The notes: generated from the letters alone by a model not told the origin. DNA of 56,729 nucleotides from Alphaproteobacteria bacterium (GCA_028278105.1 JANQEX010000091.1:1-56729); one strand, 5' to 3'; positions 4,125 through 46,569 are shown, counted from the first letter of the stretch. Numbers and translations: made by a program.

Positions 4125-4194
4125 GAAGGGGCAAAAGGGTCACGAGGGTCAACGGGGTCAACAAAAAAGACCCTCATAACCTTTCCAGCCCTCA
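4125..4194. repeat. GGGTC/GACCC 9-bp-period palindromic array, copy A
   Basis: gaaggggca-aaagggtca-cgagggtca-acggggtca, spacer, gaccctcat-aacctttcc-agccctca. Confidence 0.75.
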
Positions 4195-7165: not shown

Positions 7166-7461
7166 CTAGGGTCTGAACTCAATTTAACCAAATGTCATGC
7201 CTGCCCCGGCTTCTCCGCCTCCGCAAACTTCGGCGCGACGGGTGTGCCAGGACCTCGGCGTAGCCGCAGGCGAAGCCGGGCGCAGGGGCAGGCTCCAGCC
7301 TTTAGTCCCCGCGAAAGCGGGGATCACATCCAGAAAATTCAAACGGTTAAACTGGATTCCAGCTCGCGCTCGCCCCGGCTCCCGCCGGGGTACGCTTGGC
7401 TGGAATGAGGTGAAAGTGAATCTTTTCAAGGGGCAATTCTTAAATTGAGTCTAGACCCTAA
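7166..7461. mobile_element. MITE (family 2) with internal REP hairpins
   Basis: TAGGGTCTGAACTCAATTT at the left and AAATTGAGTCTAGACCCTA at the right (19 bp inverted, 2 mismatches); left end repeated at 56630. Confidence 0.75.
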
Positions 7462-21275: not shown

Positions 21276-22604
21276 ATGAAATTCAAACGACTTCTGGCCG
21301 ATCTGGAGGCGATTCCACCCATACGCCATTACGGGCGTGTGACCGCCGTGCTTGGCCTGCTGGTGGAGATCGCGGGCGTTGAGCGCCGTCTTTCGGTGGG
21401 AAGCCGCTGCCATCTGATTGCGCAGGATGACCGCCGGGTTCTTTCGGAAGTTGTGGGTTTCCGCAATGGCAAGGCCCTGCTGATGCCCTTCGGCACGCTG
21501 GACGGCATCGGCCTTGGATCAAAAGCCGAACTGGCCGAGGCGCAGGCCTTCGTCACGCCGGGCGACAGATGGCTGGGGCGGGTGATTAACGCGCTGGGCG
21601 AGCCGATTGACGGCAAGGGTCCTCTGGACCAGGGCGACGCCATCGTTCCCATCCGCAACACGCCGCCGCCCGCCAATGAGCGGCAAAGGGTGGGGGGCAA
21701 GATCGACCTTGGCGTGAAAAGCATCAACAGCTTCGTGACCTGCTGCAAGGGCCAGCGCATGGGCATTTTCGCGGGTTCGGGCGTGGGAAAATCGGTGATG
21801 ATATCGATGATTGCCCGCTATACTTCGGCCGACGTCACCGTGATCGGCCTTGTGGGCGAGCGCGGCCGCGAGGTGCAGGAATTCATCCATGACGATCTGG
21901 GGGAGGAGGGCCTGGCCCGCTCGGTGGTGGTGGTGGCCACGTCCGACGAGGCGCCGCTGATGCGAAGACAGGCGGCCTACATGACCCTGTCGGTCGCCGA
22001 ACATTTCCGCGATCAGGGCAAGAATGTCCTGTGCCTGATCGACAGCATCACGCGCTTTGCCACGGCGCAGCGCGAAATCGGCCTTTCGGCGGGCGAGCCG
22101 CCCACCACCAAGGGTTATCCACCCTCCACCTTTGCCGAACTGCCAAGGCTTCTGGAGCGCGCCGGGCCGGGCCGGGCAGGGGCCGGGACCATCAGCGGCC
22201 TTTTCACGGTTCTGGTGGATGGCGACGACCATAACGAGCCCATCTCCGACGCCGTGCGCGGCATTCTGGACGGGCATATCGTGCTGAGCCGAAGCATTGC
22301 CGAACGCGGGCGCTATCCCGCCATCGATGTTTTGAAAAGCATCTCGCGCACCATGCCCGCCTGCAACAATGACGAGGAAAACAGCGTCGTCTCCCGCGCG
22401 CGGCAGTTGATGGCGGCGCATGAGAACATGGCCGAGATGATCCGTCTTGGCGCCTACCGCCGCGGCAGCGACCCGCTGACCGACGAAGCCATCCATTACC
22501 ACCCCGCGCTGGAAGCCTTTCTCTCGCAGACAAAGGAGGAAAGCAGCACCCTTGCCGAAGGCCATGCCCGCCTTGCCGAGGCTCTGGACATGGGGAAGAA
22601 GTAA
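21276..22604 (+). CDS. fliI: Flagellar export ATPase FliI
   Basis: [27 protein letters not shown]. Confidence 0.96.
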
Positions 22605-22605: not shown

Positions 22606-22690
22606 CAAGGGTCAAGAGGGTCGAAAAGGGGCACAAGGGTCTTTGACCCTGATGACCCTTGCGACCCTTTTGATCTCCTCTTGACCCTTA
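22606..22690. repeat. GGGTC/GACCC 9-bp-period palindromic array, copy B
   Basis: Four AGGGTC-type units then five TGACCC-type units filling the fliI-fliJ gap. Confidence 0.85.
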
Positions 22691-22696: not shown

Positions 22697-23119
22697 ATGC
22701 CCGACGTCACCACCCTCATCAAAATGCAAAAGCTGCTCGTGGACGACCAGCGGCGCGTCCTGGCCGCGCGTCAGGCCGAGGTGGACCGCATTGAAAACGA
22801 CCTCCGCGTCCTGCGCGAGGGGCTGGAGATGGAAAAGCACAATCCGGCGGCTCTGGAAGAGGGAGGCTACATGCTTGGCCCCTTCATCCAGGCCGAGCTG
22901 GAGCGCGAGGAAGACTTAAAGGAAAAACTGGTCTCCGCCGTCAAGGTCATGGAAGCCGAACGCGAAAAGCTGGCCACGCTGTTCGAGGAGTTGAAGCGCT
23001 ATGAAATCGTTCAGGAAAACTGGGAGGCCGAGCAGGAAGCCGGGCGCAGCCGGACGGAACGCATCACCTATGACGAGCAGGCCGGTGTGCAGCACCGGAG
23101 ACGGAAGGATGATACATGA
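22697..23119 (+). CDS. fliJ: Flagellar export protein FliJ-like
   Basis: 140-aa coiled coil directly after fliI; F.ELKRYE..Q and terminal DE motif. Confidence 0.75.
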   Translation: MPDVTTLIKMQKLLVDDQRRVLAARQAEVDRIENDLRVLREGLEMEKHNPAALEEGGYMLGPFIQAELEREEDLKEKLVSAVKVMEAEREKLATLFEELKRYEIVQENWEAEQEAGRSRTERITYDEQAGVQHRRRKDDT

Positions 23120-23211
23120 TTAAGGCCAAGCTCATTTGATTGCCTGAGGAGTCTGGACTCAATTAAACAGGTTTTGCATTCAAAAAACAGTTTCTCACCC
23201 CGGCCCCCGCT

Positions 23212-23455
23212 TCCCTGCTTCGCCTTCGGCTTCGCAGGGCGAGCTTGCAAAATACATCTCCCCTCCCCTTGAGGGAGGGGTTGGGGGTGGGGTGGAGCGT
23301 GGGAGCTTCAAAGCCTCACCGTTTACGCGAGAGGCAGCCATAAGACCCCACCCCTTGATCCCCTCCCTTCCGCCTCCGCTCGGCGAGCTTTGGCAGACGA
23401 ACTTCCTTCAAGGACCTCGCCATAGCTTTAGCGAAGGCGGGCAAGGAGAGGGGAG
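23212..23455. repeat. Cluster of nested REP-like palindromes
   Basis: CCCTCCCCTTGAGGGAGGGG..GGGGTGGGGT / ACCCCACCCC..CCCCTCC pair with inserted hairpins; 23212-23252 is an exact inverted copy of 34922-34962. Confidence 0.7.
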
Positions 23456-23480
23456 TTATGCCACCCTGATCTGACAGGTT

Positions 23481-23562
23481 GCAGGGGCGAGAGGGGCATA
23501 AGGGTCAAGAGGGTCGAAGACCCTCATGACCCTTTCGCCCCTCAAGACCCTTTTGACCCTTA
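23481..23562. repeat. GGGTC/GACCC 9-bp-period palindromic array, copy C
   Basis: gcaggggcg-agaggggca-taagggtca-agagggtcg-aa-gaccctcat-gaccctttc-gcccctcaa-gaccctttt-gaccctta. Confidence 0.85.
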
Positions 23563-23569: not shown

Positions 23570-25129
23570 TCAAACCTCGCGTCCCATCGTGGTGCGGGCC
23601 TTGTCGAGGATGGTCACCCAGCCCATGCGGTTGGCGGAAAACGCAAGGCTGCCGTCATAGCGCACTTCTTCCAGCGCGCGCTGGAAATGGGTCAACAGTT
23701 CGGCGCGCAAACCGGCGGCGAAGGGCCGGTCGGTGCGCACCACAAGGTCGAGCTTCTTCCTGTGCACAAGCCCGTCAAGCTGCACCGGGCCAAGGCGGCT
23801 CAGCGACACGTCGATCACGAAGCGCCGCGCCAGGTTCGGATCGCGCGGCTTTCCGTTCCGCTCATGCGGATCGTATATGTAAAAGCGGAACAGGTGCATC
23901 CTGTCCTGCTCGAAGAGCGGCACGCTCAGGCCGCGCCACGGCCCGCCGGGGCCTTCGCAATCGCGGCTGGCGTGTTCTTTCCACTGTTCCTGGATAGTCT
24001 TTACAAGGTCGTCCTTGCCGAGATCGCGCAGGCGGCGGACAAAATCTTCGCCCAGCCACTGGACGGGGTTGCCCTTTAAAGCCTCGAAAAAGAACAGCAG
24101 CGCGCCGGCAAGTTGCGCGGGCTTCGGCTGGGGCAGGCGGGCCTGCGCGAATTCGGCAAAGGCCGCGGGCGATTGCGCGGCAAAGGCCGCGAGCGCCTGC
24201 CGCAGGCCTGTCCAGGCGCCGTCATCCATAACTTCAGGCGGCCGGTCCACCACCAGCCCGGCCAGGGGCCCCATGGAAATCAGGAGTCTTGTATTCACCG
24301 GCCAGTTCTGCGCGCCCTGCACCGCCACCATCTGTCCGCCCACGCTCAGGACCGGCTGGCCGGAAGGCATGTTGCCCAGCACGATGGCAACTTCGGAATT
24401 CGGAATGGCGGGCGGCGTGCTGTTCGGAGCCAGGATTCCAAGGATTTTTATCGAGGTTGCCTGCGGCGCGGCCGCCGCGCTGGTGGGCGCGGCCTGCTGT
24501 TGCCGTCCGGCGGGAGGCGCATCGGGCCGCTTGATGATTTCGGGCGTTTTCCGCGCCGCTTCGATTTCCGGCGCATTCATGTTCAGCATGCCGATGTTCG
24601 CATGGGATTTCGCCGCGGCGGTTTTGATGAATTTCTCCGGCGCATGCGGGGAAAAGAGGGACGAGGGCAACACCAGCGCCGGATGCACCTTGCCGATTTT
24701 GGGAATTTCGGCGGTCTGCGTCTGGGAAAAGGCGCTCATCGACGAGCCAGAGGCCGAGCTTTCAATCGGCTTTTCCGGCATGAGGGTCTTTCCTCCCACC
24801 ACCAGCACGGCGGCCAATCCTTGCAGGCCGGGACGAATCTGCAAAAAAACGCGGGCAGGCAGCAGATTGGCGATATCCTGATTTTGCATCTGCTGGACCT
24901 TCAACAGCATTTCGCCCATGGCGGTGCGCATGACAAGCTGGTCCAGCCCCTGCAACACCGCCGTGCCTTCCAGCGTCACGGGACGCAGCAGCGTTGAGGG
25001 ATTGATGGAAATGCTGGCGTTCTGGATGCTGACCGGAAAACTGTATTGCGCGGCTTCCTGCGAGCCCTTCTGGGCCTGCTGCAGGATCGCGTTGGCGGCG
25101 GCAAGCTGATCGGGAGTTTGGTCCGCCAC
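23570..25129 (-). CDS. Flagellar-cluster protein with FliK-like C-terminal domain
   Basis: Pro/Ala/Gln-rich body, C-terminal RFVIDVSLSRLGPVQLDGLV..KLDLVVRT; GTG start just after flhG. Confidence 0.65.
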   Translation of the reverse strand: MADQTPDQLAAANAILQQAQKGSQEAAQYSFPVSIQNASISINPSTLLRPVTLEGTAVLQGLDQLVMRTAMGEMLLKVQQMQNQDIANLLPARVFLQIRPGLQGLAAVLVVGGKTLMPEKPIESSASGSSMSAFSQTQTAEIPKIGKVHPALVLPSSLFSPHAPEKFIKTAAAKSHANIGMLNMNAPEIEAARKTPEIIKRPDAPPAGRQQQAAPTSAAAAPQATSIKILGILAPNSTPPAIPNSEVAIVLGNMPSGQPVLSVGGQMVAVQGAQNWPVNTRLLISMGPLAGLVVDRPPEVMDDGAWTGLRQALAAFAAQSPAAFAEFAQARLPQPKPAQLAGALLFFFEALKGNPVQWLGEDFVRRLRDLGKDDLVKTIQEQWKEHASRDCEGPGGPWRGLSVPLFEQDRMHLFRFYIYDPHERNGKPRDPNLARRFVIDVSLSRLGPVQLDGLVHRKKLDLVVRTDRPFAAGLRAELLTHFQRALEEVRYDGSLAFSANRMGWVTILDKARTTMGREV

Positions 25130-25134
25130 CCGGC

Positions 25135-25917
25135 TTACTCCAGTATCCTGTTGGCCAGCGCCTCGATATCGGCGGCGGCGGCGCAACCGGGATAGCGCGT
25201 GAGCAGCGATGTTTGCGCGCGAATGGCGTCGCGCACCCTGGCGTCGCGCCGCACGACGCCCCAAAGCGGCGGGTCGTAATCAAGGAATTTCCTGCAAACC
25301 GTTTGAATGGTCTCATAGGTCTTGTGGCCGTCCGCGGCATTCGCCGCCATGTTGACGACCACGCATGGCGCCGCGGCGGGATTGGCCTTGACGGTCACCT
25401 TGATGAAGGCGTATGCGTCGGTGAGCGAGGTGGGCTCGTCGGTCACGATCACGAGGACGCGGGCCGCCGGTCCCGCCATCACGCGCACCGCGCGGTCGAT
25501 CCCCGCGCCCAGATCCACCACCACCTTGTCATAGGCGGCGGCCAGCTTGATCAGGTCGTTGCGCAACTCGGCCACGCGCTGCGCGGGCAGGCTGGCCAGA
25601 TTGCCCGAACCGGACCGTCCGGCGACGATATCGAAATCGCCTTCCCTGAAAGGGGTCACGGCTCCCGCCAGCGGCATGCGGTCCTCGATCACGGCGCCGA
25701 GATCCTTCTCCGGCGTCAGGCCAAGCTGGATGTCCACATTCGCCAGGCCCAGATCGCCGTCGAACAGCAAAACGCGCGCGCCGGATTTTGCCAGCGCATG
25801 GCACAAGGTGGCGGCCAGCCAGGTCTTGCCCACGCCGCCCTTGCCGCTGGCGATGGCGATCATGTTCGGGCAGGCGAGGAGGGCCGGGGCGTTCATATTG
25901 GCGGTGGCTTCATTCAT
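25135..25917 (-). CDS. flhG: MinD/ParA family ATPase FlhG
   Basis: IASGKGGVGKT, DGDLGLANVD, EPTSLTDAYA; follows flhF. Confidence 0.88.
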   Translation of the reverse strand: MNEATANMNAPALLACPNMIAIASGKGGVGKTWLAATLCHALAKSGARVLLFDGDLGLANVDIQLGLTPEKDLGAVIEDRMPLAGAVTPFREGDFDIVAGRSGSGNLASLPAQRVAELRNDLIKLAAAYDKVVVDLGAGIDRAVRVMAGPAARVLVIVTDEPTSLTDAYAFIKVTVKANPAAAPCVVVNMAANAADGHKTYETIQTVCRKFLDYDPPLWGVVRRDARVRDAIRAQTSLLTRYPGCAAAADIEALANRILE

Positions 25918-25929
25918 GAGAGAACTCCA

Positions 25930-26952
25930 TCAGGCGGTGGCGCGGTGCTTCAGGGCGCGAGCCACGATTTCAGGGGGAAGGAAAAGCCGGGCGAAGGTCA
26001 CGGCATTGGCGGGTTGCAGCGGGTCGGTGACCTTGGGCGAAAGGCTCATGTCGCTGACGGCGATGCGCGTCTCGCGCAGCATGGCCAGAAGACTGCCCAG
26101 CCGCCGCGCGAGATCGATTTTGCTGATGATCAGCTTTTTCACGCCAAGATCCGCAAAGGCCCGCACCTGATCGCAGGCTTCCTGCACATCAAGGCCGGCG
26201 GGCATCACCAGCACCGGCTCCACGCCGAGTTCCAGCAATCCGCCGAGCGTCTTCATCTCGCCCGCGTGAAAGGGATTGCGGCCGGAACTGTCCACCAGCA
26301 CCACCTCGCCGGGCGGATGGGATTCCAGCGCGTCCTTCAACCCGTTCGCATCCTCCACCTCGAACAGGCGCAGCTTCATGATGCGGGTGTAGGCGGCCAG
26401 TTCCTCCACCGCGCCGGGGCGCGTCATGTCGGTTGTGATCACGCCCACGCTTTTACGGTTCAGGGCGCGTTGCGCCGCGATTTTCGCCATGGCAAGGGTT
26501 TTGCCGGCCCCCGGCGACCCCACCAGGCAGACGGGACGGGGCGGATCGTCAAACAGCGGCGCGAAGCGGAAGAACCTGTCCATCGCCGCGCCCAGGGCGA
26601 TCAGCGCGTCGTGATCGGAAAAATGCGTGACCACGTCCATCATTTTTTCCGAAAGCATCATGGGCAGCCCGTGACGCATCAGGCAATCGGCCACCAGCTC
26701 GGCCACGTCACCGGTATCAACCGGCGGCGGCAAGGACGGGGGAGGGAATGGCGGCGGCGCGGGCGTGGATGGCGCGGAAGCGGAGAGCGGCGCCGAGGTG
26801 TCGACCGGCGTGTCTTCCACGGCCGCCGTCACGCGCACGCCGCCCATGTCGTCGTCGCGGGTGGCGACGATAACCGCGTTCATGCCCAGGGCCTCGCGCA
26901 CCTGCCGCATGGCGTCGTTCAGGTTCTGGCCATGGAAGGAGCGAAGGCGCAT
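25930..26952 (-). CDS. flhF: Flagellar SRP-type GTPase FlhF
   Basis: MRLRSF..A...VR..LG..AVIV N-terminus, GSPGAGKT, DSSG, SKID. Confidence 0.88.
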   Translation of the reverse strand: MRLRSFHGQNLNDAMRQVREALGMNAVIVATRDDDMGGVRVTAAVEDTPVDTSAPLSASAPSTPAPPPFPPPSLPPPVDTGDVAELVADCLMRHGLPMMLSEKMMDVVTHFSDHDALIALGAAMDRFFRFAPLFDDPPRPVCLVGSPGAGKTLAMAKIAAQRALNRKSVGVITTDMTRPGAVEELAAYTRIMKLRLFEVEDANGLKDALESHPPGEVVLVDSSGRNPFHAGEMKTLGGLLELGVEPVLVMPAGLDVQEACDQVRAFADLGVKKLIISKIDLARRLGSLLAMLRETRIAVSDMSLSPKVTDPLQPANAVTFARLFLPPEIVARALKHRATA

Positions 26953-27019: not shown

Positions 27020-27085
27020 GCATTCCCGCGAAAGCGGGAATCCAGTTTTATAAAACAAACTGGGTCCCCGCTTTCGCGGGGACGC
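27020..27085. repeat. REP doublet
   Basis: CATTCCCGCGAAAGCGGGAATCCAG and CTGGGTCCCCGCTTTCGCGGGGAC in inverted arrangement. Confidence 0.8.
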
Positions 27086-27122
27086 AAGAATAGGAAGAAA
27101 TTGTTGTTTTCAAACTGCATGG

Positions 27123-29273
27123 CTACACCTGCCCCAGCGTCTTGATGCGGGCGCGGGGATGGATTTCGTTTTGCGACAGGACGGGCGTCGCGGGCCGGAA
27201 GCGCTCGATGATCGAGCGCACATAGGGGCGGATGGCGGGCGAGGTGAGCAGCACCGGCGTTTCGCCCATCAGCGCGTGGCGGTCGAACACCTGCCGCACA
27301 CCGTTGATGAATTGTTGCAGGCGCGAGGGACTCATGGCCAGTTGCCTGTCTTCGCCCTCGCCGATGATGGATTCCGCGAAGGCCTGCTCCCATTCCGGCG
27401 AAAGGGTGATGAGCGGGATAAAGCCGGTCTCGCGGGTATGCGCCTCGGAAATCTGGCGGGCCATGCGCGCCCGCACATGCTCGGTGATGCTGGTGATGTT
27501 GCGCGTGACCGCCGCGGCCTCGGAAATGCCTTCCAGAATGGTCGGCAGGTCACGGATCGAGATGCGCTCGGCCAGCAGGTTTTGCAAGACGCGCTGCAAC
27601 CCGCCGATGGTGATCTGCGAGGGGATCACGTCGGCCACCAGCTTCTGGTGCTCGCGGTCCAGTTCGTCGACCAGCTTTTGCGTTTCGGCGTAGGACAGCA
27701 TTTCGGGCATGTTGTCCTTGACCACCTCGGTCAGATGCGTGGTGACCACCGTGGGCGTATCCACCACCGTATAGCCCTTGAACAGCGCCTCTTCGCGGTA
27801 AGAGGGGTCGGACCATACGGCGGGCAGGCCGAAGGCGGGCTCGGTGGTGGGCTCGCCGGGAAGGGAGATGGTTTCGCCCTTCGGGTCCATCACCAGCAGC
27901 ATGCCGGGGCGCAGCGTGCCGCGCCCGGCCTCGATCTCCTTCACCCGGATCACATAGGCGTTCGGAGCAAGCTGTAAATTGTCCTGAATGCGCACCGCCG
28001 GCAGGACGAAGCCCATTTCCGAAGCCAACTGGCGGCGCAGGCCCTTGATCTGGTCGGTGAGGCGCTGCCCGGCCTCGGTGTTGACCAGCGACAGAAGCCC
28101 GTAACCAAGCTCGATGCGCATGATGTCGATGGCCAGCGAGCGGTTGATGGGCTCTTCCGCCACCTCAAGGGGAATTTCCTCCCTTGCGGCGATTTCCTTC
28201 GCCTCGGCCATGCGATGCGTCTGCCGCATGCGCCAGGCGAAAAAGCCGATCACCCCCGCCAATCCCCAGAAGGGAAGTTTGGGAATGCCGGGCATCAGGG
28301 ACATGGCGCCCAGCAGGAAGGCGGTCATGCCAAGGGCGGCAGGATAGCCGCCTATCTGGGTCACCATGCCGGCCTGCGCCGTTTCCGTCGTGTTGGTCTT
28401 GGTGACAAGGAATCCCGCCGCCACGGAAACGATCAGCGCGGGCACCTGCGTGGCGAGCCCGTCGCCAATGGTCAGGCGGATATAGCTGTTGGCCGCTTCC
28501 ATAAAGGGCATGTCATGCATCACCATGCCGACCACCGTGCCGCCCACGATGTTCACGAAGGTGATGACCAGGCCGGCAATGGCGTCGCCGCGCACGAATT
28601 TGGAAGCGCCGTCCATCGAGCCGAAGAAATTGCTTTCCTGCTCCAACTCCTTGCGGCGGCGGCGGGCGTCTTCCTCGTTGATGAGGCCGGAGGACAGGTC
28701 GGCGTCAATCGCCATCTGCTTGCCGGGCATGGCGTCCAGGGTGAAGCGCGCCGCCACCTCGGCGATACGGGTCGATCCCTTGGTGATGACCACGAAATTG
28801 ACGATGGTCAGAATGGCGAAGACGATGATGCCGATCACGAAACTGCCGCGCATGATGAAGCCGGAAAAGGCCTCCACCACATGGCCGGCGGCATCGGCCC
28901 CTTCGTTGCCCTTGGAGAGGATCAGGCGCGTGGTGCCCAGGTTGAGCGCAAGGCGCAGCAACGTGGCGATCAGCAAAATGGTGGGGAACGAGCTAAGCTC
29001 CAGCGGCTTCTTGATGAACAGCACCGTCATCAGCACCGTCACCGAAAAAGTCAGCGACGCGGTGAGGCCGAAATCCACAACGAGCGGCGGGACCGGCAGG
29101 ATCATCATCATCAGGATGGCCACCAGCCCGACCGCCATCCAGACGTCGGAACGCTGGAACAGCCGGTTGATCTCGGCCATCTCGTCCGGCATGGCAAGGG
29201 GCTTTCCGCCGCCCCCTTCGGGGGCCGTGGGAGGCGAAGCCTCTTCAGTCGTGGTGGGCAGGGCGTTGGTCAT
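27123..29273 (-). CDS. flhA: Flagellar export gate FlhA
   Basis: RIAEVAARFTLDAMPGKQMAIDADL, FFGSMDGASKFVRGDAIAG. Confidence 0.97.
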   Translation of the reverse strand: MTNALPTTTEEASPPTAPEGGGGKPLAMPDEMAEINRLFQRSDVWMAVGLVAILMMMILPVPPLVVDFGLTASLTFSVTVLMTVLFIKKPLELSSFPTILLIATLLRLALNLGTTRLILSKGNEGADAAGHVVEAFSGFIMRGSFVIGIIVFAILTIVNFVVITKGSTRIAEVAARFTLDAMPGKQMAIDADLSSGLINEEDARRRRKELEQESNFFGSMDGASKFVRGDAIAGLVITFVNIVGGTVVGMVMHDMPFMEAANSYIRLTIGDGLATQVPALIVSVAAGFLVTKTNTTETAQAGMVTQIGGYPAALGMTAFLLGAMSLMPGIPKLPFWGLAGVIGFFAWRMRQTHRMAEAKEIAAREEIPLEVAEEPINRSLAIDIMRIELGYGLLSLVNTEAGQRLTDQIKGLRRQLASEMGFVLPAVRIQDNLQLAPNAYVIRVKEIEAGRGTLRPGMLLVMDPKGETISLPGEPTTEPAFGLPAVWSDPSYREEALFKGYTVVDTPTVVTTHLTEVVKDNMPEMLSYAETQKLVDELDREHQKLVADVIPSQITIGGLQRVLQNLLAERISIRDLPTILEGISEAAAVTRNITSITEHVRARMARQISEAHTRETGFIPLITLSPEWEQAFAESIIGEGEDRQLAMSPSRLQQFINGVRQVFDRHALMGETPVLLTSPAIRPYVRSIIERFRPATPVLSQNEIHPRARIKTLGQV

Positions 29274-29330: not shown

Positions 29331-29407
29331 CGGGTCGAGGGGGCGGAAGGGTCGAAAGGGTCACATTAAAAGACCCTCTCGACCCTTATGACCCTATAGA
29401 CCCTTCA
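29331..29407. repeat. GGGTC/GACCC 9-bp-period palindromic array, copy D
   Basis: cgggtcg-agggggcg-gaagggtcg-aaagggtca, spacer, gaccctctc-gacccttat-gaccctata-gacccttca. Confidence 0.85.
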
Positions 29408-29408: not shown

Positions 29409-30791
29409 TCACGCTCCCGTAGCCTGGCTTGCCTCGCCGCCCGGCGTGGGCACGCTGACGCCCCGGTCGGAATATTCCTTCAGCTTGTTGCGCAGCGTGC
29501 GGATCGAAATGCCAAGAATGTTCGCGGCGTGGGTGCGGTTGCCAAGGCAATGCTGGAGCGTTTCCAGGATAAGGTCGCGCTCCACGTCGGCGACGGTGCG
29601 GCCCACCATGGCGCCGGGCACGTAATTGGCATTGGCCACCGACTGGCCGACCTTCGCCGCCGTGCCCATGGGCTGGCCGCCTTGCGCGGCCTGCCCGCCG
29701 GAAAGCACGATGGCGGAATCGTCAATCTCCTCGCCCCGCGCCATCAGCACCGCGCGGTGGATGCAGTTTTCCAGTTCACGCACATTGCCGCGCCAGGCAT
29801 GCGCCTGCAAAAGCGGCAGCACGTTTCCGGCCAAGGGCTTCACCGGCAGGCCGTTGGCTTCGGAAAACTTGGCCACGAAATGCTCGGCCAGCGGTTTCAT
29901 GTCCAGCGGGCGCTCGCGCAGGGACGGCAGGCGGATCGCCATCACGTTCAGGCGGAAGTAAAGGTCTTCGCGGAAACGCCTGGCGCGGACTTCCTCTTCC
30001 ATGTTGCGGTTGGACGTGGCGATGATGCGCACATCCACCTTGATGGGCTGGCTGCCGCCCACGCGGTCGATCTCGCGTTCCTGCAGCACGCGCAACAGCT
30101 TGGCCTGAAGGCGCAGGTCCATCTCGGAAATTTCGTCCAGCAGGATGGTGCCGCCCGAAGCCTCCTCGAACTTGCCGATGCGCCGCGCCACCGCGCCGGT
30201 GAAGGCGCCTTTCTCGTGGCCGAACAATTCGGATTCCAGAAGCTGGTCGGGAATGGCGGCGCAGTTGACCGCCACGAAATTCTGCGCCGAACGCGGGCTC
30301 TTGCGGTGAATATACTGGGCCAGAACCTCCTTGCCCGTTCCGGACTCGCCGGTCACCAGCACCGAGGCCACGCTGGGCGCCACCTTTCCGGCAAGCTCCA
30401 CGGCGGCTTTCATCGCGGGATCCGCGGCGATCAGGGCATGGCTTTCGGCCGTCACGGCCTCCAGCACCGCGGCGATCAGTTCGGCATCGGGGGGCAGGGG
30501 GATGTATTCCTTCGCTCCGGCCTTGATGGCGCGCACCGCGGCGTCGGCATCGTTGCCGAGCCCGCAGGCCACCACCGGCACGTTGATGCGCTCGGCCTTG
30601 ATCTGGTTGATCAGATCGCCCACCTCGCTTTTCACGTCGACCATGACCAGATCAATGCCCGCGCCCGAACGCAACACGTTCATCGCGCCGGAAACCGTGT
30701 CGATGTGCGACACTTTCGCGCCGCGCTGATGCGCGATCTTGCCCGCGACCGCGATGGGGCCCTGCATGGCGCCGATAATCAGAAGCCGCAT
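29409..30791 (-). CDS. flbD: Sigma54-dependent flagellar activator FlbD
   Basis: MRLLIIG receiver, GESGTGKE, GAFTGA, C-terminal GNRTHAANILGISIRTLRNKL. Confidence 0.92.
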   Translation of the reverse strand: MRLLIIGAMQGPIAVAGKIAHQRGAKVSHIDTVSGAMNVLRSGAGIDLVMVDVKSEVGDLINQIKAERINVPVVACGLGNDADAAVRAIKAGAKEYIPLPPDAELIAAVLEAVTAESHALIAADPAMKAAVELAGKVAPSVASVLVTGESGTGKEVLAQYIHRKSPRSAQNFVAVNCAAIPDQLLESELFGHEKGAFTGAVARRIGKFEEASGGTILLDEISEMDLRLQAKLLRVLQEREIDRVGGSQPIKVDVRIIATSNRNMEEEVRARRFREDLYFRLNVMAIRLPSLRERPLDMKPLAEHFVAKFSEANGLPVKPLAGNVLPLLQAHAWRGNVRELENCIHRAVLMARGEEIDDSAIVLSGGQAAQGGQPMGTAAKVGQSVANANYVPGAMVGRTVADVERDLILETLQHCLGNRTHAANILGISIRTLRNKLKEYSDRGVSVPTPGGEASQATGA

Positions 30792-35100: not shown

Positions 35101-37164
35101 ATGAGATTTCCCTTTTTTTCCAGCGCCCCGCCGCCGCTTTTCCCGAAAAGCCCCTTGGCTTGGGCGGTATTCGGCGCAACGCTGGCAATGATTTTATTTT
35201 ACGCCTGGTCGGCGGGGACCGTTCTTGTCCTGCCCGACGTTCTTTATTTCGCCGACCGGGCCCGGCATTTGCTGGAAGAGGGGACTTTCGCCCAAAGCGC
35301 TTTCTATCCCTCCGTCCCGCCGCTTTACGGCCTGCTGCTTCTGCCGGTTTATATTTTTGAAAACCTGAAAACCGGCCATGCGCTGCTGGTGGTGGTTCAA
35401 TCCTTGCTGCTGGCCTCGGCCTGGTTTCCGTTGCGCGGGCTGATCCTGAACAACGGCGCGGAAGACAAGGCCGCGGCGAGCTTTCTGGCCGGACTTGTTC
35501 TGCTGTTGCCGGCTTTTGCCTCCTACGCGCCGCTGACGACGCCGGAAGCCCTGCTGATCCCGCTGCTGATATACGCGGTTTATTTTCTGGACCGGATTTT
35601 TTCCCAAAAAGCGGACGCCGCGGCAGGGTGGGGGGCCGGACTGTTCCTGGGCCTCGCCGCCCTGACGCAACAAAGTGCTTCGGTCATATGGCTCGCCGCC
35701 GTTATCAGCCTTGCCCTGACTCGTCCGTTCAAGTCCGGCGCGAGGGAACGCCGCGCGGTCCTGACGGTGGCGCTGCTTCCCCCTCTTCTCTGGCTGGCAT
35801 GGCGGGGAATGTCTTTCCTGATGGGCGAGGCCGTGGATCAGCCTTTTGCCTTCAACAACGCGCTGGCGCGATTCAACTTCGTCAAGAACGCCCTGCTTTA
35901 CATCTGCTACGGCGGCGCGCCTTTGGCGGGACTGGCGCTGGTCCTGGCCGGGCTGATGAAGGGAAAATCCTTCTGGCGCGAGCCGTTCTTCCGCTTCAGC
36001 TTTCTGGCGCTGGCGGGCGTTGCGCTTTACGCCGCCTTCACCAACGACGTGATCGTCGCCAAAAAGCTGGATTACATCACCAACCGCGTGATCGAGCCTT
36101 ACCTGTTCCTGCCGCTGATCGTGTTTTTGCGGCTGGACGGCGGCACAAGGCGCGAAATCCTGACCAACGGGCTGATGATCCTGTTCGTGCTGATGGTTCT
36201 TGGCCTGCCGGGCGCGCTGAATCTGGATTTCATCAGCGGCTTCGCCTTTTTCACGGGGACGGCCCTCACCCCTGCTGGCGTTCTGACGCGCAACGTGCTG
36301 TATCTGGCGCTGGCCGCCCTGCTGGTGCTGGCGCTTTATCTGCGCCCCAAATCATTCCTTCCGGTCTATGCGCTTGTGCTGCTTTTCGTGACGGGCGCGG
36401 GGCTGACCGCCGCGTCGGGCTGGTGGCGGGGACAGGATGACGCGCAGTTCGCCGCGATGCCGGCGCAAGCCTTCGCCCGGAACCCGGAGTTCCGCGCAGC
36501 CGGAAAAATCTATCTCGACACGCGCTGCAAGGAAGGCCGGAGCAGCGACGTGGCCTATCTCTACGGCTGTTTCGACATGAGCAAATCGGCCTATTTCCTG
36601 CCCAAACCGCCAAAACCGCTCCGCGCGGCGCAGATCGCGGAACGGCCGTTTGAGGAAATCGACGGCGCGCTTTTCGCTTCCACCGAAAATGACAACCGCC
36701 TCGGCCCCACCGTGGCGCAGGCGGGGATGACCCGTTTCGTGCGCCTGTCGAAAGACAGCTTGCATGAACTGAAAACAACGCCCCTTGTCCAGATCACGGG
36801 CATCAAAGGGCTGCGCCAATACATCAACATTCCCGTCAGGGGCCGTCTGCGGCGCATGACCATGCTGGACCAGGAATCCTCTTTCACGCTCAGGGCCAGC
36901 CGGACGGGCTGCTCGCGTTTTTCAGCGCTGCTGTTTGCCGACGACCATCCCCGCAAGCTGGCGTTTCGCCTCAACGACGGCAGAACGCGGACAATCCGCG
37001 TGCCCGTGCTTGGCCACGGGCCGCAACGCCCCGCCTCAATAACGCTGCGTTTGCCGGAAGGGGAGTCGGTGCTGCACCTCAGCTATGGCGGCAAGGATGA
37101 TTTGCCGCAAATCCGTAACCTGATCCTGTTCGAGAAACCTGTTTTCGAAAGCTGCGGACGTTAA
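35101..37164 (+). CDS. Polytopic membrane protein, possible GT-C fold glycosyltransferase
   Basis: About 12 hydrophobic segments, PD..Y in the first loop, PPLY and PEAL..PL motifs, soluble C-terminal domain. Confidence 0.55.
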   Translation: MRFPFFSSAPPPLFPKSPLAWAVFGATLAMILFYAWSAGTVLVLPDVLYFADRARHLLEEGTFAQSAFYPSVPPLYGLLLLPVYIFENLKTGHALLVVVQSLLLASAWFPLRGLILNNGAEDKAAASFLAGLVLLLPAFASYAPLTTPEALLIPLLIYAVYFLDRIFSQKADAAAGWGAGLFLGLAALTQQSASVIWLAAVISLALTRPFKSGARERRAVLTVALLPPLLWLAWRGMSFLMGEAVDQPFAFNNALARFNFVKNALLYICYGGAPLAGLALVLAGLMKGKSFWREPFFRFSFLALAGVALYAAFTNDVIVAKKLDYITNRVIEPYLFLPLIVFLRLDGGTRREILTNGLMILFVLMVLGLPGALNLDFISGFAFFTGTALTPAGVLTRNVLYLALAALLVLALYLRPKSFLPVYALVLLFVTGAGLTAASGWWRGQDDAQFAAMPAQAFARNPEFRAAGKIYLDTRCKEGRSSDVAYLYGCFDMSKSAYFLPKPPKPLRAAQIAERPFEEIDGALFASTENDNRLGPTVAQAGMTRFVRLSKDSLHELKTTPLVQITGIKGLRQYINIPVRGRLRRMTMLDQESSFTLRASRTGCSRFSALLFADDHPRKLAFRLNDGRTRTIRVPVLGHGPQRPASITLRLPEGESVLHLSYGGKDDLPQIRNLILFEKPVFESCGR

Positions 37165-37356
37165 AAAAACAGGCCTCCCCGCAAAAGCGGGGATTTCCGG
37201 GCGGGCTCACGCGATGAGACGCCGCGCGAAGGGACGTGGATTAACCTTGTAAGGGAAAACGCGCGCAGGACGGTTTTTCACGCGGTTGCGTGGGAAAAAA
37301 CTGTTTCCTGCAATAAAAACTTCTGATAGTTCATTGCCTTTCCGAGTAAACCAAAT

Positions 37357-37431
37357 GCTGCCGTAGCTCAGGGGTAGAGCACGTCCTTGGTAAGGACGGG
37401 GTCGGAGGTTCAATTCCTCTCGGCAGCACCA
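37357..37431 (+). tRNA. tRNA-Thr(GGT)
   Basis: Acceptor GCTGCCG/CGGCAGC, anticodon arm CGTCC-TTGGTAA-GGACG, GGTTCAATTCC T-loop, encoded CCA. Confidence 0.97.
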
Positions 37432-37631
37432 CCGGATTTTCCCGGCAAGGCGAAGCCGGGCCCTGGAAAATCCTATGTCCACCGTAGCCTTGGCGAAGGT
37501 GGGCTGGTTTCTTTTGTATGCTTCATCTGGGCCCCCGCTTTCGCGGGGGCGCAAGTTTTTCTAAACTCGCAAGCTCGTTAAGAAAAACTATGCGGTTCAT
37601 GCCAAGGCGTTCATAGTATTATGCGAGCGAA

Positions 37632-37666
37632 ATGCTACTTATAGACTGTCGCACTATAAGTAGCAT
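37632..37666. promoter_or_regulatory. C-box operator of a restriction-modification controller gene
   Basis: ATGCTACTTATAG-actgtcgca-CTATAAGTAGCAT, perfect 13-bp inverted repeat, 35 bp long, 17 bp before the HTH gene. Confidence 0.8.
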
Positions 37667-37683
37667 CGCAATAGTATAATCGC

Positions 37684-37905
37684 ATGCATAACTCTCTCAT
37701 TGAAATACTCGCTAAAAATGTTCGATTGCACAGAAACCGGCAATCTATGTCCCAAGATGAACTCGCGGATAAAAGCGGTTTGCATCGTACATATATCGGC
37801 GGGATAGAACGAGCTGAAAGAAATATTACCCTTCATTCTCTTGAGAAAATTGCCACCGCTCTAAAAGTATCCCCAAAAAGGTTAATTGATGACAGCAAAA
37901 ACTAA
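37684..37905 (+). CDS. XRE HTH controller (C) protein
   Basis: SQDELADKSGLHRTYIGGIERAERNITL; preceded by the C-box, overlaps the nuclease gene. Confidence 0.88.
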   Translation: MHNSLIEILAKNVRLHRNRQSMSQDELADKSGLHRTYIGGIERAERNITLHSLEKIATALKVSPKRLIDDSKN

Positions 37906-38581
37906 AACCAATAAAAAAAGTGCACAGGGTGTCGTAAGCAAGAATGATGCAGAAGCTGTTGCTGCAAGAGAGCGTGTATTGTCAATGATAGATGCTATTT
38001 CGGCAGAAGATTTAATTAAATCAATTAAACGGGCCCCCAGCCTTCGAGGGATGATTCTTGGCTATATAGCCGAGGAAATGTTTGAGAAACATCTATTCGA
38101 TGAATACAAAATTTCTCCCGATAATATTCAAACGCACGATGATCATGATCGAGGAGTCAATAAATCTGATAGAACAGTGAAATATGGAGGGCGCGTATAT
38201 GGCATACAACTGAAATCTATGCAGACTAACAGCATTGGAAAAAATACGATCACTCAAGCATTACAAGCAGATATTCAAAATGATGCTTCTGATGCACGGA
38301 CGGTCATCTTGCCCAATGGCTCTAGAGTGATGACAACCTGCTATAAACGTGGCGAATACGATATACTTGCAGTTCCTCTTTTTCCGTTTACCGGCAAATG
38401 GAATTTTGCCTACAAAAAAAATGTGGATTGCAGGGCAACAACCTCAAAAAAATATACGGAATATCAAGCAAAGTACCTGCTCGCCTCCACCGAAAAAATT
38501 ACATGGCCCTTATCCAAAGAATGGTCAACCGACCTGAGAATAATCATGACCGATTTAATCGGCTCAATCATTTCCTCTTAG
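37886..38581 (+). CDS. Putative type II restriction endonuclease
   Basis: AT-rich; E...SD...QLK pattern compatible with a PD-(D/E)xK variant; position between C gene and methyltransferase; exact start uncertain (TTG 37886 or ATG 37889). Confidence 0.7.
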   Translation: MMTAKTKTNKKSAQGVVSKNDAEAVAARERVLSMIDAISAEDLIKSIKRAPSLRGMILGYIAEEMFEKHLFDEYKISPDNIQTHDDHDRGVNKSDRTVKYGGRVYGIQLKSMQTNSIGKNTITQALQADIQNDASDARTVILPNGSRVMTTCYKRGEYDILAVPLFPFTGKWNFAYKKNVDCRATTSKKYTEYQAKYLLASTEKITWPLSKEWSTDLRIIMTDLIGSIISS

Positions 38582-39427
38582 CCAATCAGAGAAGTTTGTA
38601 TAATCTATTTTTTTCCTATGATCTTGACGCTCAAAAACAAGAAAATAAGAATGATTTTTTCTCGCGTGTTTCTGCTGCAGCAGCCGAGAAATAATGGGAG
38701 CGTTCTTTCTCACAACCACGAAAACATCTTTGCAATAGAACATTTGATGCTCATATGCCCATACTAGTTCAATATGAGTTAGCTTTTGTCTATTCGCGGA
38801 CACTTCATCTTGGCATTTTACTATGAACTTCCCGGATGGCTTTAAAATTCGTTTAACCTCGGTAAGAACTGATAGATACGTCTCAAGAACAGCGTCGTGA
38901 TACTTGCGCTCTGCTTTTGCTGGAGTCGTGATTCCACTAGAATATGCCTTCTGAAAAGATTCATGGCTACCAGATCCCGCAAGAGCCTGCCTTGTTTTCC
39001 GATAGAGGCCTTCCATATAAGGAGGATCAAACACGACTGCATCTACCGAATTATCGTCATAAGGAAGCCGCTTCCAGCATTGCCCTAACTTTAGGTCAGA
39101 GGCCAATAGTTGATAATCCGATTTGCTTACATTTCTCCAAAAAACTCCAAGGCCATAAGTTATATCTGCAACAACTGCACCCTTTTTTACGTGCAACGCA
39201 AGGATCTGGGGGAAGACAATAGAATTATCCGCAGTATGCGCGGACATAGTGACGTCACTTGTCGCAATGCCCCTCGCTTTGCGTTTTTTGCCAGCAGTCC
39301 CTGCAAATCCCTGTTCTTGTTTCAAGACAAAAAGGCCGTGCAATGTTAAACTCCCGTTATGATACGTATAGTCATCATATTGGTATAGACTGTTTCCGTC
39401 AAGCTCAAAATGAAAGGTAGAAAACAC
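38564..39427 (-). CDS. Amino (N4-C or N6-A) DNA methyltransferase
   Basis: ADITYGLGVFW SAM-binding motif followed by VVFDPPY; convergent with and overlapping the nuclease; true start probably downstream of 39427. Confidence 0.8.
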   Translation of the reverse strand: MFSTFHFELDGNSLYQYDDYTYHNGSLTLHGLFVLKQEQGFAGTAGKKRKARGIATSDVTMSAHTADNSIVFPQILALHVKKGAVVADITYGLGVFWRNVSKSDYQLLASDLKLGQCWKRLPYDDNSVDAVVFDPPYMEGLYRKTRQALAGSGSHESFQKAYSSGITTPAKAERKYHDAVLETYLSVLTEVKRILKPSGKFIVKCQDEVSANRQKLTHIELVWAYEHQMFYCKDVFVVVRKNAPIISRLLQQKHARKNHSYFLVFERQDHRKKIDYTNFSDWLRGND

Positions 39428-39536
39428 TCTAAAAACGGTAGTGTCTCAGTTTGAAAAACATCATGCCCGCGAAGCCGAGTCCCACTTTTATAGGAACCAA
39501 AAAACTTTCGCTGACATGATGTTCCGCCAAATTAAG

Positions 39537-40001
39537 TCAGGCCCCAAACAAATCTGACAAGTACTCCCTGGATGGCTTTGCCTCTGATTGAAACCGCTCA
39601 ATCCGGTAACCGGCAGAACGAAGAAGCGCATCTCTTTTTCGGTCTTCTTCTTTAACATAAGTTCTGTCGTCTAACTCCACGATTGCCACCACATCAAAAG
39701 TATCGGGATGACAGATCACAAAGCCCGCATATTTTTGGCAATACTGGTTAGGAAGTGAGCCTTGTTCACCACACGGAACGGACTTGAGCAAGGCATCAAA
39801 TGATACTTGCGGAAAAACATGACAATCCGGCAGCGCCCTGCGCAACCGGTGATAAAATTCCCGTTCATCCAATGTAAAAATTGGCTTGCGCCACAACGCC
39901 GGTTCACACTCCGTTGACCCGCTCCATGTCATCCTTAGCGCCACGCCAATAAAACACAAGCCGCCCAACAGGAGAAACAAGCCGGTAATCTGATTATCCA
40001 T
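39537..40001 (-). CDS. DUF2726 family protein
   Basis: N-terminal TM helix, E..FY..L, VFPQV, IVELDD..., RDALLRSAGYRIERF. Confidence 0.8.
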   Translation of the reverse strand: MDNQITGLFLLLGGLCFIGVALRMTWSGSTECEPALWRKPIFTLDEREFYHRLRRALPDCHVFPQVSFDALLKSVPCGEQGSLPNQYCQKYAGFVICHPDTFDVVAIVELDDRTYVKEEDRKRDALLRSAGYRIERFQSEAKPSREYLSDLFGA

Positions 40002-40064
40002 GCCATGATTTTTGTTGCTTTAAAGCGGTTGGTCAATAGGCAACAATCGGCTTGGCTTTTCCGT

Positions 40065-40317: not shown

Positions 40318-41052
40318 TCACTCCACCCGCCCATACACCGCCTGTAGCTGCTTTCCTTCTTCCGCCGCAAGCCAGGCCCATATCTGGTCGCCGTAGGAGA
40401 AATGCCACCATTCGCCGGGGTGGCAGCGGAAATCCTGCGCAGACAAAAGATTGAACAAAACCCCGCGGTTGGCGGCGTATCTTAAAGCATCCGCGCCCAG
40501 CCGCCCGTCAAAAAAACCCGACGCGGATTCCGGCCCGATGAAATCAATGGGCGAGCCCATGTCAATCTCGTTCCCCTTTTCATCTTCCAGCGTGCAATCC
40601 AGCGCAGCGCCCGTGCTGTGCGGCGGCGGTGCGGCCGGGTCTTCGCTGGGCGGCGCCCAGAATTGATAAACCTCTTGCAGCAATCCGTCTTTTTGCGCGT
40701 CCGAAAGCGCAAGGGGATCAAGCCCCCGTTTTTTCGCGTGATGATAAAATTCATGCGCGACCATGAATTCCTGCACGGCAAGGGGGCGATAGGCATCGAA
40801 CACGCGAATGCGCCAGTCCGGACGCGCCGCGCTCAACCGGTCTTGCGCCGCTTTCAGCCGCGCCGCCACGCCGTGGCGCAAAAAATAGGGGCCGCGATTG
40901 CCATAGGGCGCGCCGAAAGCCGCGTAGGCGGGCGGGGAGGGCAGGGCAAGGCCCATCCCCTCCAGCGTCACCAGGGCCTCCCCGCATTCCTTTATGGTAA
41001 ACGCGCTCCAGGGCCTTGCAAGCCCCGCGCCCTTGCGTTTGACCTCCGGCAC
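40318..41052 (-). CDS. D-Ala-D-Ala dipeptidase, M15D (VanX/DdpX-like)
   Basis: FDAYRP, PHSTGAALD, EWWHFSYGD; start uncertain (GTG 41052). Confidence 0.88.
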   Translation of the reverse strand: MPEVKRKGAGLARPWSAFTIKECGEALVTLEGMGLALPSPPAYAAFGAPYGNRGPYFLRHGVAARLKAAQDRLSAARPDWRIRVFDAYRPLAVQEFMVAHEFYHHAKKRGLDPLALSDAQKDGLLQEVYQFWAPPSEDPAAPPPHSTGAALDCTLEDEKGNEIDMGSPIDFIGPESASGFFDGRLGADALRYAANRGVLFNLLSAQDFRCHPGEWWHFSYGDQIWAWLAAEEGKQLQAVYGRVE

Positions 41053-41074
41053 AAGGCGGGTTATTTCCTCCGTG

Positions 41075-41281
41075 ATGGATGACAATAAAACCCCTCCGCC
41101 AAAACCGGACGCCGCGCGCCTGCAACGCGAGGCCGAAGCCTTGCGCCAGAATCTTCTCCGCCGCAAGGAGCAGCAACGCCAACGCGAGACGAAGCAGGAA
41201 AGCCCGGACAAGGATAATACAAATTCCCCTCCCACCGGGAGGGGTTCTGCGAAAGGGTCGGGAGGGTCGGAAGGGTCATGA
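41075..41281 (+). CDS. Small basic hypothetical protein
   Basis: EAEALRQNLLRRKEQQR motif of a small protein I recall near murA in alphaproteobacteria; not verified. Confidence 0.55.
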   Translation: MDDNKTPPPKPDAARLQREAEALRQNLLRRKEQQRQRETKQESPDKDNTNSPPTGRGSAKGSGGSEGS

Positions 41282-41331
41282 GAGTCTTTTATGCTGACCC
41301 CATGGACCCTTCCGACCCTCAATGACCCTTC
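41252..41331. repeat. GGGTC/GACCC 9-bp-period palindromic array, copy E
   Basis: aaagggtcg-ggagggtcg-gaagggtca-tgagagtc, spacer, tgaccccat-ggacccttc-cgaccctcaa-tgacccttc. Confidence 0.85.
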
Positions 41332-41352
41332 CAAAAATTACTCCCAAAACTA

Positions 41353-46481: not shown

Positions 46482-46569
46482 TTGGGGGTTTCCCCGCCCG
46501 GATCGCGCCCACAGGGCACTGGACAAACCGGCGAACAAAACCTATACCCACTACCGTTTTGATGGGTAC

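Follow-up and report, generated by a model that had tools for sequence, protein, structure and literature searches.

Mirrored arrays of a GGGTC nine-mer in an alphaproteobacterial genome: a high-copy intergenic repeat family enriched behind stop codons

Five paired arrays and the genes next to them

The stretch of DNA analyzed here, called the window in the following, comprises 56,729 nt from an Alphaproteobacteria bacterium (GCA_028278105.1, JANQEX010000091.1:1-56729) and is contig C27 of the assembly. At positions 22606–22690 it carries an element that fills the spacer between the flagellar genes fliI and fliJ and consists of two convergent arrays of short tandem units, the first with the core GGGTC and the second with the complementary core GACCC. 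Four further elements of this kind are present in the window, and an earlier interpretation made from the sequence alone (the sequence-only reading) had proposed that all five share one design. Direct reading of the sequence bore this out, for the coordinates as well as for the units:

Element 1, 4125–4194: four G-core units (GGGGC, GGGTC, GGGTC, GGGTC), loop AACAAAAAA, one intact GACCC unit, rest of the right arm decayed
Element 2, 22606–22690: four G-core units, TTT, three GACCC units, one degenerate unit and a final GACCC
Element 3, 23481–23562: four G-core units, GAA, five C-core units
Element 4, 29331–29407: 4+4 units, loop ACATTAAAA
Element 5, 41252–41331: 3–4+4 units, with a CCCCTCCC-N3-GGGAGGGG hairpin module ahead at 41226–41244

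The motif GGGTC-N4-GGGTC occurs 16 times in the window, compared with an expectation of 0.11, and none of 100 shuffled sequences reached this number. All 16 matches fall within the five elements. In an Rfam search of the window at the gathering score only three tRNAs were found, and the elements matched no family. The genes adjacent to the elements are the following (ORF, open reading frame):

4192–4893, minus strand: radC (NCBIfam RadC, E 7e-63), stop codon 4192–4194
21276–22604, plus strand: fliI (NCBIfam FliI_clade3, 648.8 bits, over the cut-off), stop codon TAA 22602–22604
22697–23119, plus strand: fliJ-like gene (NCBIfam FliJ, E 5.9e-9, below the cut-off), beginning 7 nt past element 2
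23570–25264, minus strand: ORF of 564 aa, termed FliK-like in the sequence-only reading; no match in NCBIfam and Pfam
27123–29273, minus strand: flhA (NCBIfam FlhA, 890.5 bits)
29409–30791, minus strand: flbD (NCBIfam FlbD, Caulobacter type, 739.6 bits versus a cut-off of 750), stop codon 29409–29411
40318–41334, minus strand: longest ORF with a Peptidase_M15 domain (residues 138–318; Pfam PF01427, E 2.5e-26)

Element 1 overlaps the radC stop codon, element 2 is 1–4 nt distant from the fliI stop, element 3 is 7–10 nt distant from the stop of the 564-aa ORF (23570–23572, minus strand), and element 4 is located between the flbD stop (1–5 nt distant) and the flhA start. The proposal that every copy sits at a stop codon thus holds for elements 1–4, with distances of 0–10 nt, but not for element 5. 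The plus-strand ORF 40994–41281 at this element is antisense to the ORF with the Peptidase_M15 match, and therefore element 5 is not anchored at a stop, but faces two gene starts. The true start of the Peptidase_M15 ORF is probably downstream of element 5.

Four of the window copies are predicted to fold with free energies of −45 to −68 kcal/mol and z-scores of −6 to −9 on either strand. The individual values are −49.2/−56.2 kcal/mol with z −6.8/−8.6 for element 2, −52.5/−53.5 kcal/mol with z about −7.1 for element 3, about −45 kcal/mol with z about −6.1 for element 4, and −64/−68.3 kcal/mol with z −6.6/−9.0 for element 5. The predicted fold of element 1 is weak (z −1.8 on the plus and −4.3 on the minus strand). 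Intrinsic terminators were ruled out as an explanation of the elements by the lack of a U-tract.

Copy number, polarity and unit of the genome-wide family

The assembly (G000) comprises 2.05 Mb in 119 contigs and has a G+C content of 61% and a reported completeness of 100%. Arrays were detected as cores GGG[GT]C or G[AC]CCC chained at steps of 8–10 bp with three or more units. This yielded 93 G-core and 98 C-core arrays, compared with 7 and 5 for reversed, non-complemented control cores. A G-core array followed by a C-core array within 80 bp was defined as a paired element, and 88 such elements were found, in contrast to only three pairs of the opposite order. The term "five-copy family" in the sequence-only reading is therefore adequate for the window, but not for the genome with its approximately 88 paired elements. 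Throughout the genome an element is met about every 23 kb, and nothing ties them to flagellar genes; the suggested link to the flagellar cluster is not supported.

The most common architecture is 4+4 (24 elements), followed by 3+4 (18) and 4+3 (11), and most loops have a length of 3 nt (AAA/AAG) or 9 nt (AAYAAAAAA). Forty G-core and 28 C-core arrays have three units, 51 and 62 have four, and 2 and 8 have more than four. This preference for four units could also stem from the copying of 4+4 founders.

The unit derived from 336 + 373 copies is RNRAGGGTC. An A is present at position −1 in 85% and a purine at −2 in 86% of the units, positions −3 and −4 are variable, and the profile is identical in both arms. 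The complete conservation of the core is no evidence, because the core was demanded by the detection rule. The filler bases of mirrored pairs are not complementary across the arms: at positions −4/−3/−2 the complementarity was 0.35/0.25/0.41, compared with expected values of 0.36/0.31/0.43 (register 0, n = 186), and registers −1 and +1 were no better. Fully complementary fillers were even depleted (3 versus 9.6 expected). The generation of one arm by fold-back copying of the other was ruled out by this chance level of filler complementarity. Two claims of the sequence-only reading, that the filler is not complementary and that a periodic core rather than a perfect palindrome is conserved, agree with the filler test and the unit profile. 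According to folding predictions, the AGGGTC/GACCCT blocks alone would suffice for very stable hairpins. One of the triplets TAA, TGA or TAG is present on the G-rich strand of 188 of the 709 units. A quadruplex motif (four tracts of G3+ spaced by N1–7) occurs on at least one strand of 80 of the 88 elements and on both strands of 42, and the arrays supply 148 of the 487 quadruplex motifs of the genome (about 310 in shuffled genomes).

Ribbon-helix-helix proteins bind iterated sites of 7–9 bp. A DNA- or RNA-binding protein that cooperatively reads head-to-head arrays of AGGGTC with a constant phase of 9 bp might thus be considered, and it would fit the fixed polarity, the equal conservation of the core and of positions −1 and −2 in both arms, the variability of −3 and −4 without covariation across the arms, and the occurrence of the same core and period with different filler in unrelated phyla. 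However, a phase of 9 bp does not hold sites on one face of B-DNA, each of the other unit families of this genome that share the architecture (see below) would need its own protein, the conservation of the core is partly built into the detection rule, and the cross-phylum scan also forced the core. No candidate protein was found, although no systematic search was made. We regard such a protein as very unlikely, and the binding array and the tuning of operon stoichiometry that had been proposed for the elements received no support here.

Location of the elements relative to genes

Genes were called with a simple greedy procedure based on hexamer log-odds of ORFs. It assigned 77% of the genome as coding, a density for which the caller itself, pseudogenes or the large number of repeats may be responsible. 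Outside the called ORFs are 84 of the 88 elements, and the 77 that could be placed in spacers are distributed over tandem (51), convergent (13) and divergent (13) gene pairs, which is near the null expectation of random insertion; for divergent spacers the expectation was 15.3±3.5.

Within the spacers the distribution is not random. Of 64 elements with a flank facing a stop codon, 34 are within 20 bp of the stop, compared with 21.1±2.5 when each element was placed randomly inside its own spacer, and none of 5000 shuffles reached 34. Within 10 bp the numbers were 21 versus 14.9±2.3 (60 of 5000 shuffles). Flanks facing start codons showed no enrichment near the starts. The elements can be divided by their flanks. 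Forty-nine elements are naked arrays, 18 have G-run/C-run modules on one side, and 21 have them on both sides. The naked arrays are found in short spacers (median 161 bp), and 30 of the 41 with a stop-facing flank are within 20 bp of the stop (expected 18.0±2.1; 0 of 5000 shuffles). The 21 mosaic-flanked copies are found in long spacers (median about 640 bp), and none of 11 with a stop-facing flank is that close. The genome-wide enrichment near stops, which the sequence-only reading had anticipated, was thus verified.

At many junctions the stop codon is inside or directly against the filler of the first unit. Unpaired GGGTC arrays next to stops have the G-rich strand as the sense strand in 13 cases versus 3. 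The possibility that the units retain ribosomes after termination as Shine-Dalgarno-like sequences was ruled out, since for all 16 unit dimers tried the predicted pairing with an anti-Shine-Dalgarno motif does not leave the range obtained when their letters are shuffled (the assembly yielded no 16S tail).

Subfamilies, mosaic modules and other repeats

When the 88 elements were sorted by loop, two subfamilies with conserved filler and flanks became apparent, one framed by GGGGAGGG...CCCTCCCC and the other by GGGGTGGGG...CCCCACCCC. Farther out, CCCCTCCC-N4-GGGAGGGG hairpins and a "GCTCGTCCGCCGAAGCTCGCAGAGCG..." module are often present. In the two aligned subfamilies, which include 36 of the 88 elements, the best pairwise identities are 0.82–0.87 and the medians 0.66–0.70. 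The family has thus diversified by descent into subfamilies, and some copies are embedded in a G-run/C-run mosaic. The earlier statement that the elements are neither a MITE (transposable element of the miniature inverted-repeat type) nor a simple hairpin was too strong, in view of subfamilies that share filler and flanks by descent with up to 87% identity and of four window copies that are predicted to form stable bulged hairpins.

One mosaic repeat without a GGGTC array is located close to element 3:

23260–23291, plus strand: three-block C-run/G-run/G-run module of the neighboring mosaic repeat, like the modules that flank many GGGTC elements elsewhere in the genome

In the window region 23200–23460 a CCCCTCCCC-TTGA-GGGAGGGG hairpin is followed by GGGGTGGGG ... 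CCCCACCCC around unrelated cargo. About 70 matches to the segment 23259–23454 were found in the same-genus genome (G001), a genome without GGGTC arrays.

The modules invite an explanation of the elements as a classical MITE, i.e., a non-autonomous element derived from an insertion sequence, bounded by GGGG[A/T]GGG...CCC[T/A]CCCC terminal inverted repeats and moved in trans by a transposase, the naked arrays being eroded copies. The terminal modules on both sides of 21 and on one side of 18 elements, flanks that by eye are often TTAA or TAA, a DDE_Tnp_1 fragment in the genome, and the abundance of other, nested MITEs would agree with this. However, 49 of the 88 copies are devoid of modules, and these are the stop-anchored ones; the modules also flank other cargo, as at 23259–23454, and look like separate mosaic pieces. 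Furthermore, no target duplication has been shown, and a search of the genome for transposase families revealed no intact transposase. This explanation is therefore considered improbable. The long "loops" between some arms carry nested MITE-like repeats and not genes, so the cargo gene for which the sequence-only reading had suggested to look was not found in the spacers. One of the MITE-like families of the window (listed below), with TAGGTTCAATGGACAATTA ends, is inserted into loops of GGGTC elements outside the window.

The GGGTC arrays are not the only ones in this genome. Tandem Repeats Finder and a phase scan of all 5-mers revealed five major families of short arrays:

Period 8 bp, core GGTTC: 146 triple hits
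Period 9 bp, core GGGTC: 139 triple hits
Period 7 bp, core TCAGA: 123 triple hits
Period 7 bp, core GTGAA: 89 triple hits
Period 7 bp, core CTAGG: 55 triple hits

The units of the four further families are the 8-mer GGTTCGRA and the 7-mers TCAGARR, AGTGAAG and CTAGGAG, and a minor TTAGGGT-like 8-mer is also present. Examples are found at C39:79460-79629, C42:9087-9249, C68:11743-11836 and C3:17286-17360, and none is in the window. In all five families the G- or purine-rich array precedes its complement (51:2, 16:1, 9:1, 10:0 and 7:0). Unpaired arrays at most 40 bp from a stop mostly have their G-rich strand as the sense strand, with ratios of 13:3, 4:1, 10:0, 8:1 and 5:1 and a total of 40 versus 6. 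Perfect arrays of about 94 bp from other families are present at the ends of several contigs; such arrays can break assemblies. The same-genus genome also has GGTTC and TCAGA arrays, and the latter are present in a few genomes from the order as well. Of the five families, GGGTC is the most narrowly distributed.

Relatives, empty junctions and distant phyla

The triple-core pattern, with 139 hits in the genome, was not found in any of 40 relatives; six of these belong to the same family, and one, with a completeness of 89%, to the same genus. Two orthologous junctions were compared. The fliI-fliJ spacer of the same-genus genome contains a different palindromic element a few bases past the stop, and that of a second relative (G002) consists of plain A/T-rich sequence. 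The element behind the fliI stop in the same-genus genome (L054, G001:C219) reads TGTCATCCCGG...CCGGGATGACA. The C-terminus of FliI is of nearly equal length in G000 and G001, and therefore the array lies behind the native stop codon. The spot behind the fliI stop has thus been hit independently by two repeat families. The flbD-flhA spacer is 135 nt long, compared with about 15 nt in the same-genus genome and about 27 nt in a third relative (G003); it consists of element 4, which begins 5 nt past the stop, and 58 nt that are unmatched elsewhere in the genome. The empty orthologous sites that the sequence-only reading had suggested to look for were thus found at fliI-fliJ (G001, G002) and at flbD-flhA (G001, G003), so that the array is absent from two of the two junctions examined. 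The arrays were acquired in this lineage and are not ancestral. As had been suggested, the elements may be footprints of a repeat-propagating system, and the lack of the array at both junctions in the relatives is in line with this.

In a scan of 185,579 species genomes, excluding the own genome, for three GGGTC units, a gap of 1–20 nt and two GACCC units, 49 loci were found. They include Hydrogenedentales, Binatia, Acidobacteriota, Bacteroidales and relatives, Fimbriimonadaceae, Ardenticatenales, Chthoniobacteraceae and Actinomycetota, in a scan that fixed the GGGTC core and the period and was made with this single core. The filler is lineage-specific in the other phyla (e.g., TTATGGGTC, TATAGGGTC, TTTAGGGTC), and a few of the actinomycete hits resemble coding repeats. 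Arrays were abundant in three of five genomes tested, with 253, 64 and 37 triple hits compared with 0–8 for controls. The G-first order was present and the opposite order had no match in five genomes, which had been picked for the G-first order. At 35 of the 49 loci a long open frame ends next to the array, a count that lacks a proper control. A test of the strand of these frames was uninformative, because the flanks of high GC content are open on both strands (48 versus 46).

At several of these loci (L015, L032, L042 and L052 from Binatia; L011/L031; L016/L049), mirror arrays of GGGTC/GAGTC 9-mers from different species records apparently occupy the same stop-to-start spacer, as judged by eye. 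The numbers of units differ at these apparently shared spacers, and therefore arrays can outlast speciation there.

The Binatia arrays, found by eye in apparently the same stop-to-start spacers of four species records, are one of the observations that would fit an adaptive RNA element. This would be a selected hairpin in the 3′-untranslated region (3′-UTR) or between cistrons, or a switch between hairpin and G-quadruplex, that defines mRNA 3′-ends, gives protection to the upstream cistron or guards the transcript against Rho, and that would in this way adjust expression inside operons, for instance fliI-fliJ and flbD-flhA. The strong predicted hairpins, the preference for four units, and the G-rich sense strand of unpaired arrays next to stops in five families (40 versus 6) point in the same direction, and the depletion of fully complementary fillers (3 versus 9.6) would fit a bulged rather than a perfect stem. 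Yet neither the same-genus genome nor the corresponding junctions of relatives carry the arrays, which argues against a conserved function at these genes; the 21 mosaic-flanked copies are remote from stops (of 11, none is within 20 bp), decayed copies exist, and a U-tract is missing. We therefore think that a dedicated RNA element is unlikely, while giving it some weight.

Comparison with known repeat families

The closest described class are the G-rich repeats of Xanthomonas and Nostoc. Rehm et al. (2015, PMC4692102) described quadruplex-forming repeats in Nostoc, with the unit GGGGA(C/T)T, and in two genomes of Xanthomonas, with the heptamer GGGAATC (GGGNATC). In Xanthomonas about 185 arrays per genome were found, about 90% of them intergenic; arrays of four units are the majority, a number that the authors relate to the four G-tracts needed for a quadruplex, and 70–75 convergent pairs of arrays on opposite strands exist. 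The mean distance is 28 nt to the upstream ORF versus 160 nt to the downstream ORF. Most arrays are at most 50 bp from a stop codon and on the coding strand, some overlap the stop, and arrays are rare between divergent genes. No function was found for the repeats (PMC4692102).

The GGGTC family shares with this class the tandem units with a G3 tract and otherwise variable positions, the preference for four units, the convergent pairs, and the intergenic location close to stops with the G-rich strand as coding strand. The differences are the 9-bp unit RNRAGGGTC with a G-tract spacing of 6 nt in contrast to the heptamer GGGNATC, divergent spacers that are not clearly depleted, and the many copies within a C-run/G-run mosaic. 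By motif and position the GGGTC 9-mer would belong to this class as a separate sequence family; the quadruplex here is a sequence motif. The class itself is already in print, and the empty sites, the polarity rule of several families and the cross-phylum occurrence of the 9-mer are new observations.

Short tandemly repeated repetitive (STRR) sequences are heptamers of heterocystous cyanobacteria. The sequence-only reading had been reminded of them, an apt comparison: the GGGTC arrays resemble STRR and TAACTGA arrays in being intergenic tandem arrays with many copies in some lineages, absence in close relatives and occurrence of the unit in distant phyla. TAACTGA heptamer arrays are common to Beggiatoaceae, Cyanobacteria and Bacteroidetes and have no evident vector (MacGregor 2015, PMC4679880). 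They are direct repeats (169 direct sets and one indirect) just upstream of starts (PMC4679880), whereas the GGGTC arrays form convergent pairs just downstream of stops. Within the literature library that was searched, the motif strings of the 9-mer yielded nothing relevant, and a search for a follow-up of the Xanthomonas repeats yielded typing papers only.

Repetitive extragenic palindromes (REPs), together with bacterial interspersed mosaic elements (BIMEs) and REP doublets forming hairpins (REPINs), are abundant imperfect intergenic palindromes, often located past gene ends, that build mosaics and form hairpins at the 3′-ends of mRNAs. REPs are 20–40 bp long, are marked by the tag GTAG or CGTC, and are accompanied by the gene of a REP-associated tyrosine transposase (RAYT). 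The GGGTC elements share the habit of an intergenic palindrome with them. In contrast to REPs, they are 60–110 bp long, their arms are tandem arrays, no GTAG/CGTC tag is present in the alignments, and no Y1 transposase was found in the genome. Foldback transposons of Drosophila, which are eukaryotic elements of kilobase size with a link to a transposase, have inverted arms of short tandem units and variable arm length. The layout of the arms is alike, but the two are not homologous, and nothing indicates that they share a mechanism. The flanking modules share with the BoxC/TM_ECO triplex, as presented by Holder et al. (2015, PMC4666352), the three-block layout of C-run stem, loop, G-run stem, loop and second G-run. 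A local three-block analogue occurs 102 times in the genome and the published TM_ECO pattern has no match in it, and the likeness concerns the flanks and not the GGGTC arrays.

The G-rich-first rule is common to five unrelated unit families of this genome, to GGGTC 9-mers in several phyla and to the Xanthomonas heptamers. One conceivable explanation is that the arrays are written and not copied, by an activity that adds G-rich units of 7–9 nt to DNA 3′-ends in a telomere-like manner, two such ends then being joined head to head. Head-to-head joining would have the consequence that the G-rich array is always 5′ of its complement, that the numbers of units are independent, that the filler is non-complementary and that the junction is short and A/T-rich. 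A search of the genome for a reverse transcriptase (RVT_1) revealed none, and we consider this idea a very long shot. If true, a shared mechanism that generates repeats in connection with the 3′-ends of genes would account for a class of bacterial repeats that has been unexplained since the STRRs were described.

A lineage-specific repeat family with possible effects at mRNA 3′-ends

On balance, we consider it probable that the elements are a lineage-specific, high-copy family of intergenic repeats within the class of G-rich short tandem repeats, and that any REP-like effect at 3′-ends is a by-product of a selfish or neutral repeat. Each copy is a convergent pair of about four RNRAGGGTC units, an A/T-rich loop of 3 or 9 nt, and about four units on the other strand. 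Copies would persist mainly directly behind stop codons, where an insertion is expected to be harmless. There they would be transcribed as part of the 3′-UTR or of intercistronic RNA and may fold into long hairpins, in which AGGGUC/GACCCU helices of 6–7 bp alternate with small internal loops, or into G-quadruplexes. Like the 3′-structures of REPs, they might act as a barrier to 3′-exonucleases and punctuate mRNA decay, without being dedicated regulators.

Several points weigh against this view. Transcription, hairpin formation and the effect on decay are steps that we infer. No partner for transposition was found in the genome: Y1_Tnp/RAYT, RVT_1, rve, DDE_3, OrfB_IS605 and DDE_Tnp_Tn3 had no match, and DDE_Tnp_1 is represented by a fragment of 100 aa only. 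PF01797 (Y1) had no match in the genome, while control genomes were matched; insertion sequences may be unassembled, because the assembly is in 119 contigs. A target-site duplication is not established, and the ends of the elements are fuzzy. The spread is not recent, because near-identical copies at unlinked sites are lacking in the two aligned subfamilies, where the best identity is 0.87. Variation in the number of units or in presence and absence was not seen at four window elements in contigs from three DNA runs of one study, labeled coral metagenome; element 2 is spanned without differences by contigs of the runs X2 and X3. The core and the phase are kept while the filler is free, and this is not predicted by simple neutral decay, but fits recognition of the unit by something. 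Elements 2–4 are not among the 12 terminator-like sites that a consensus scan found between 21000 and 30500, and they have no U-tract. Lastly, the gene caller was crude, with unreliable starts and exact stops.

The results add a 9-bp family, in a small and repeat-laden genome, to a class that had been described without a function or a mechanism of spread. They also reveal a polarity rule shared by five families, namely that the G-rich array comes first and is on the sense strand past the stop. The generation of the arrays and the relevance of the G-rich-first order for transcripts thereby become testable questions.

Further observations

Proteins encoded in multiple copies were considered as hidden transposases, and this was ruled out: they are BNR-repeat proteins and a protein of 430–445 aa without a Pfam match. 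By eye, the latter resembles a tail-fiber or surface protein. The multi-copy genes are located at C46:4186-5478, C6:2-1339 and C38:2-421, and at C25:10595-12319, C64:3582-5294 and C104:50004-51740, several of them at contig ends.

Further palindromic families of the MITE-like type are present in the window at 10–71, 943–1041, 2081–2160, 7205–7299 and 51094–51139, and additional repeats of this type at 27020–27088, 51022–51100 and 53868–53946. The arms of these families are 85–97% complementary between copies.

Repeats can mislead ORF callers into over-extending genes. The longest ORF of murA (window 41717–43267) has an N-terminal extension of 88 residues ahead of the family match; the true start is probably near 41981, and the ORF is probably over-extended across a repeat-rich spacer. 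In the regions 37164–40005 and 25264–25930 the crude caller found no confident ORF. A contig of run X3 with low depth lacks 9 bases at window position 40896, outside the elements. Two copies of a tRNA gene with their flanks, at 46561–46646 and 51125–51210, are 98% identical and 4.6 kb apart.

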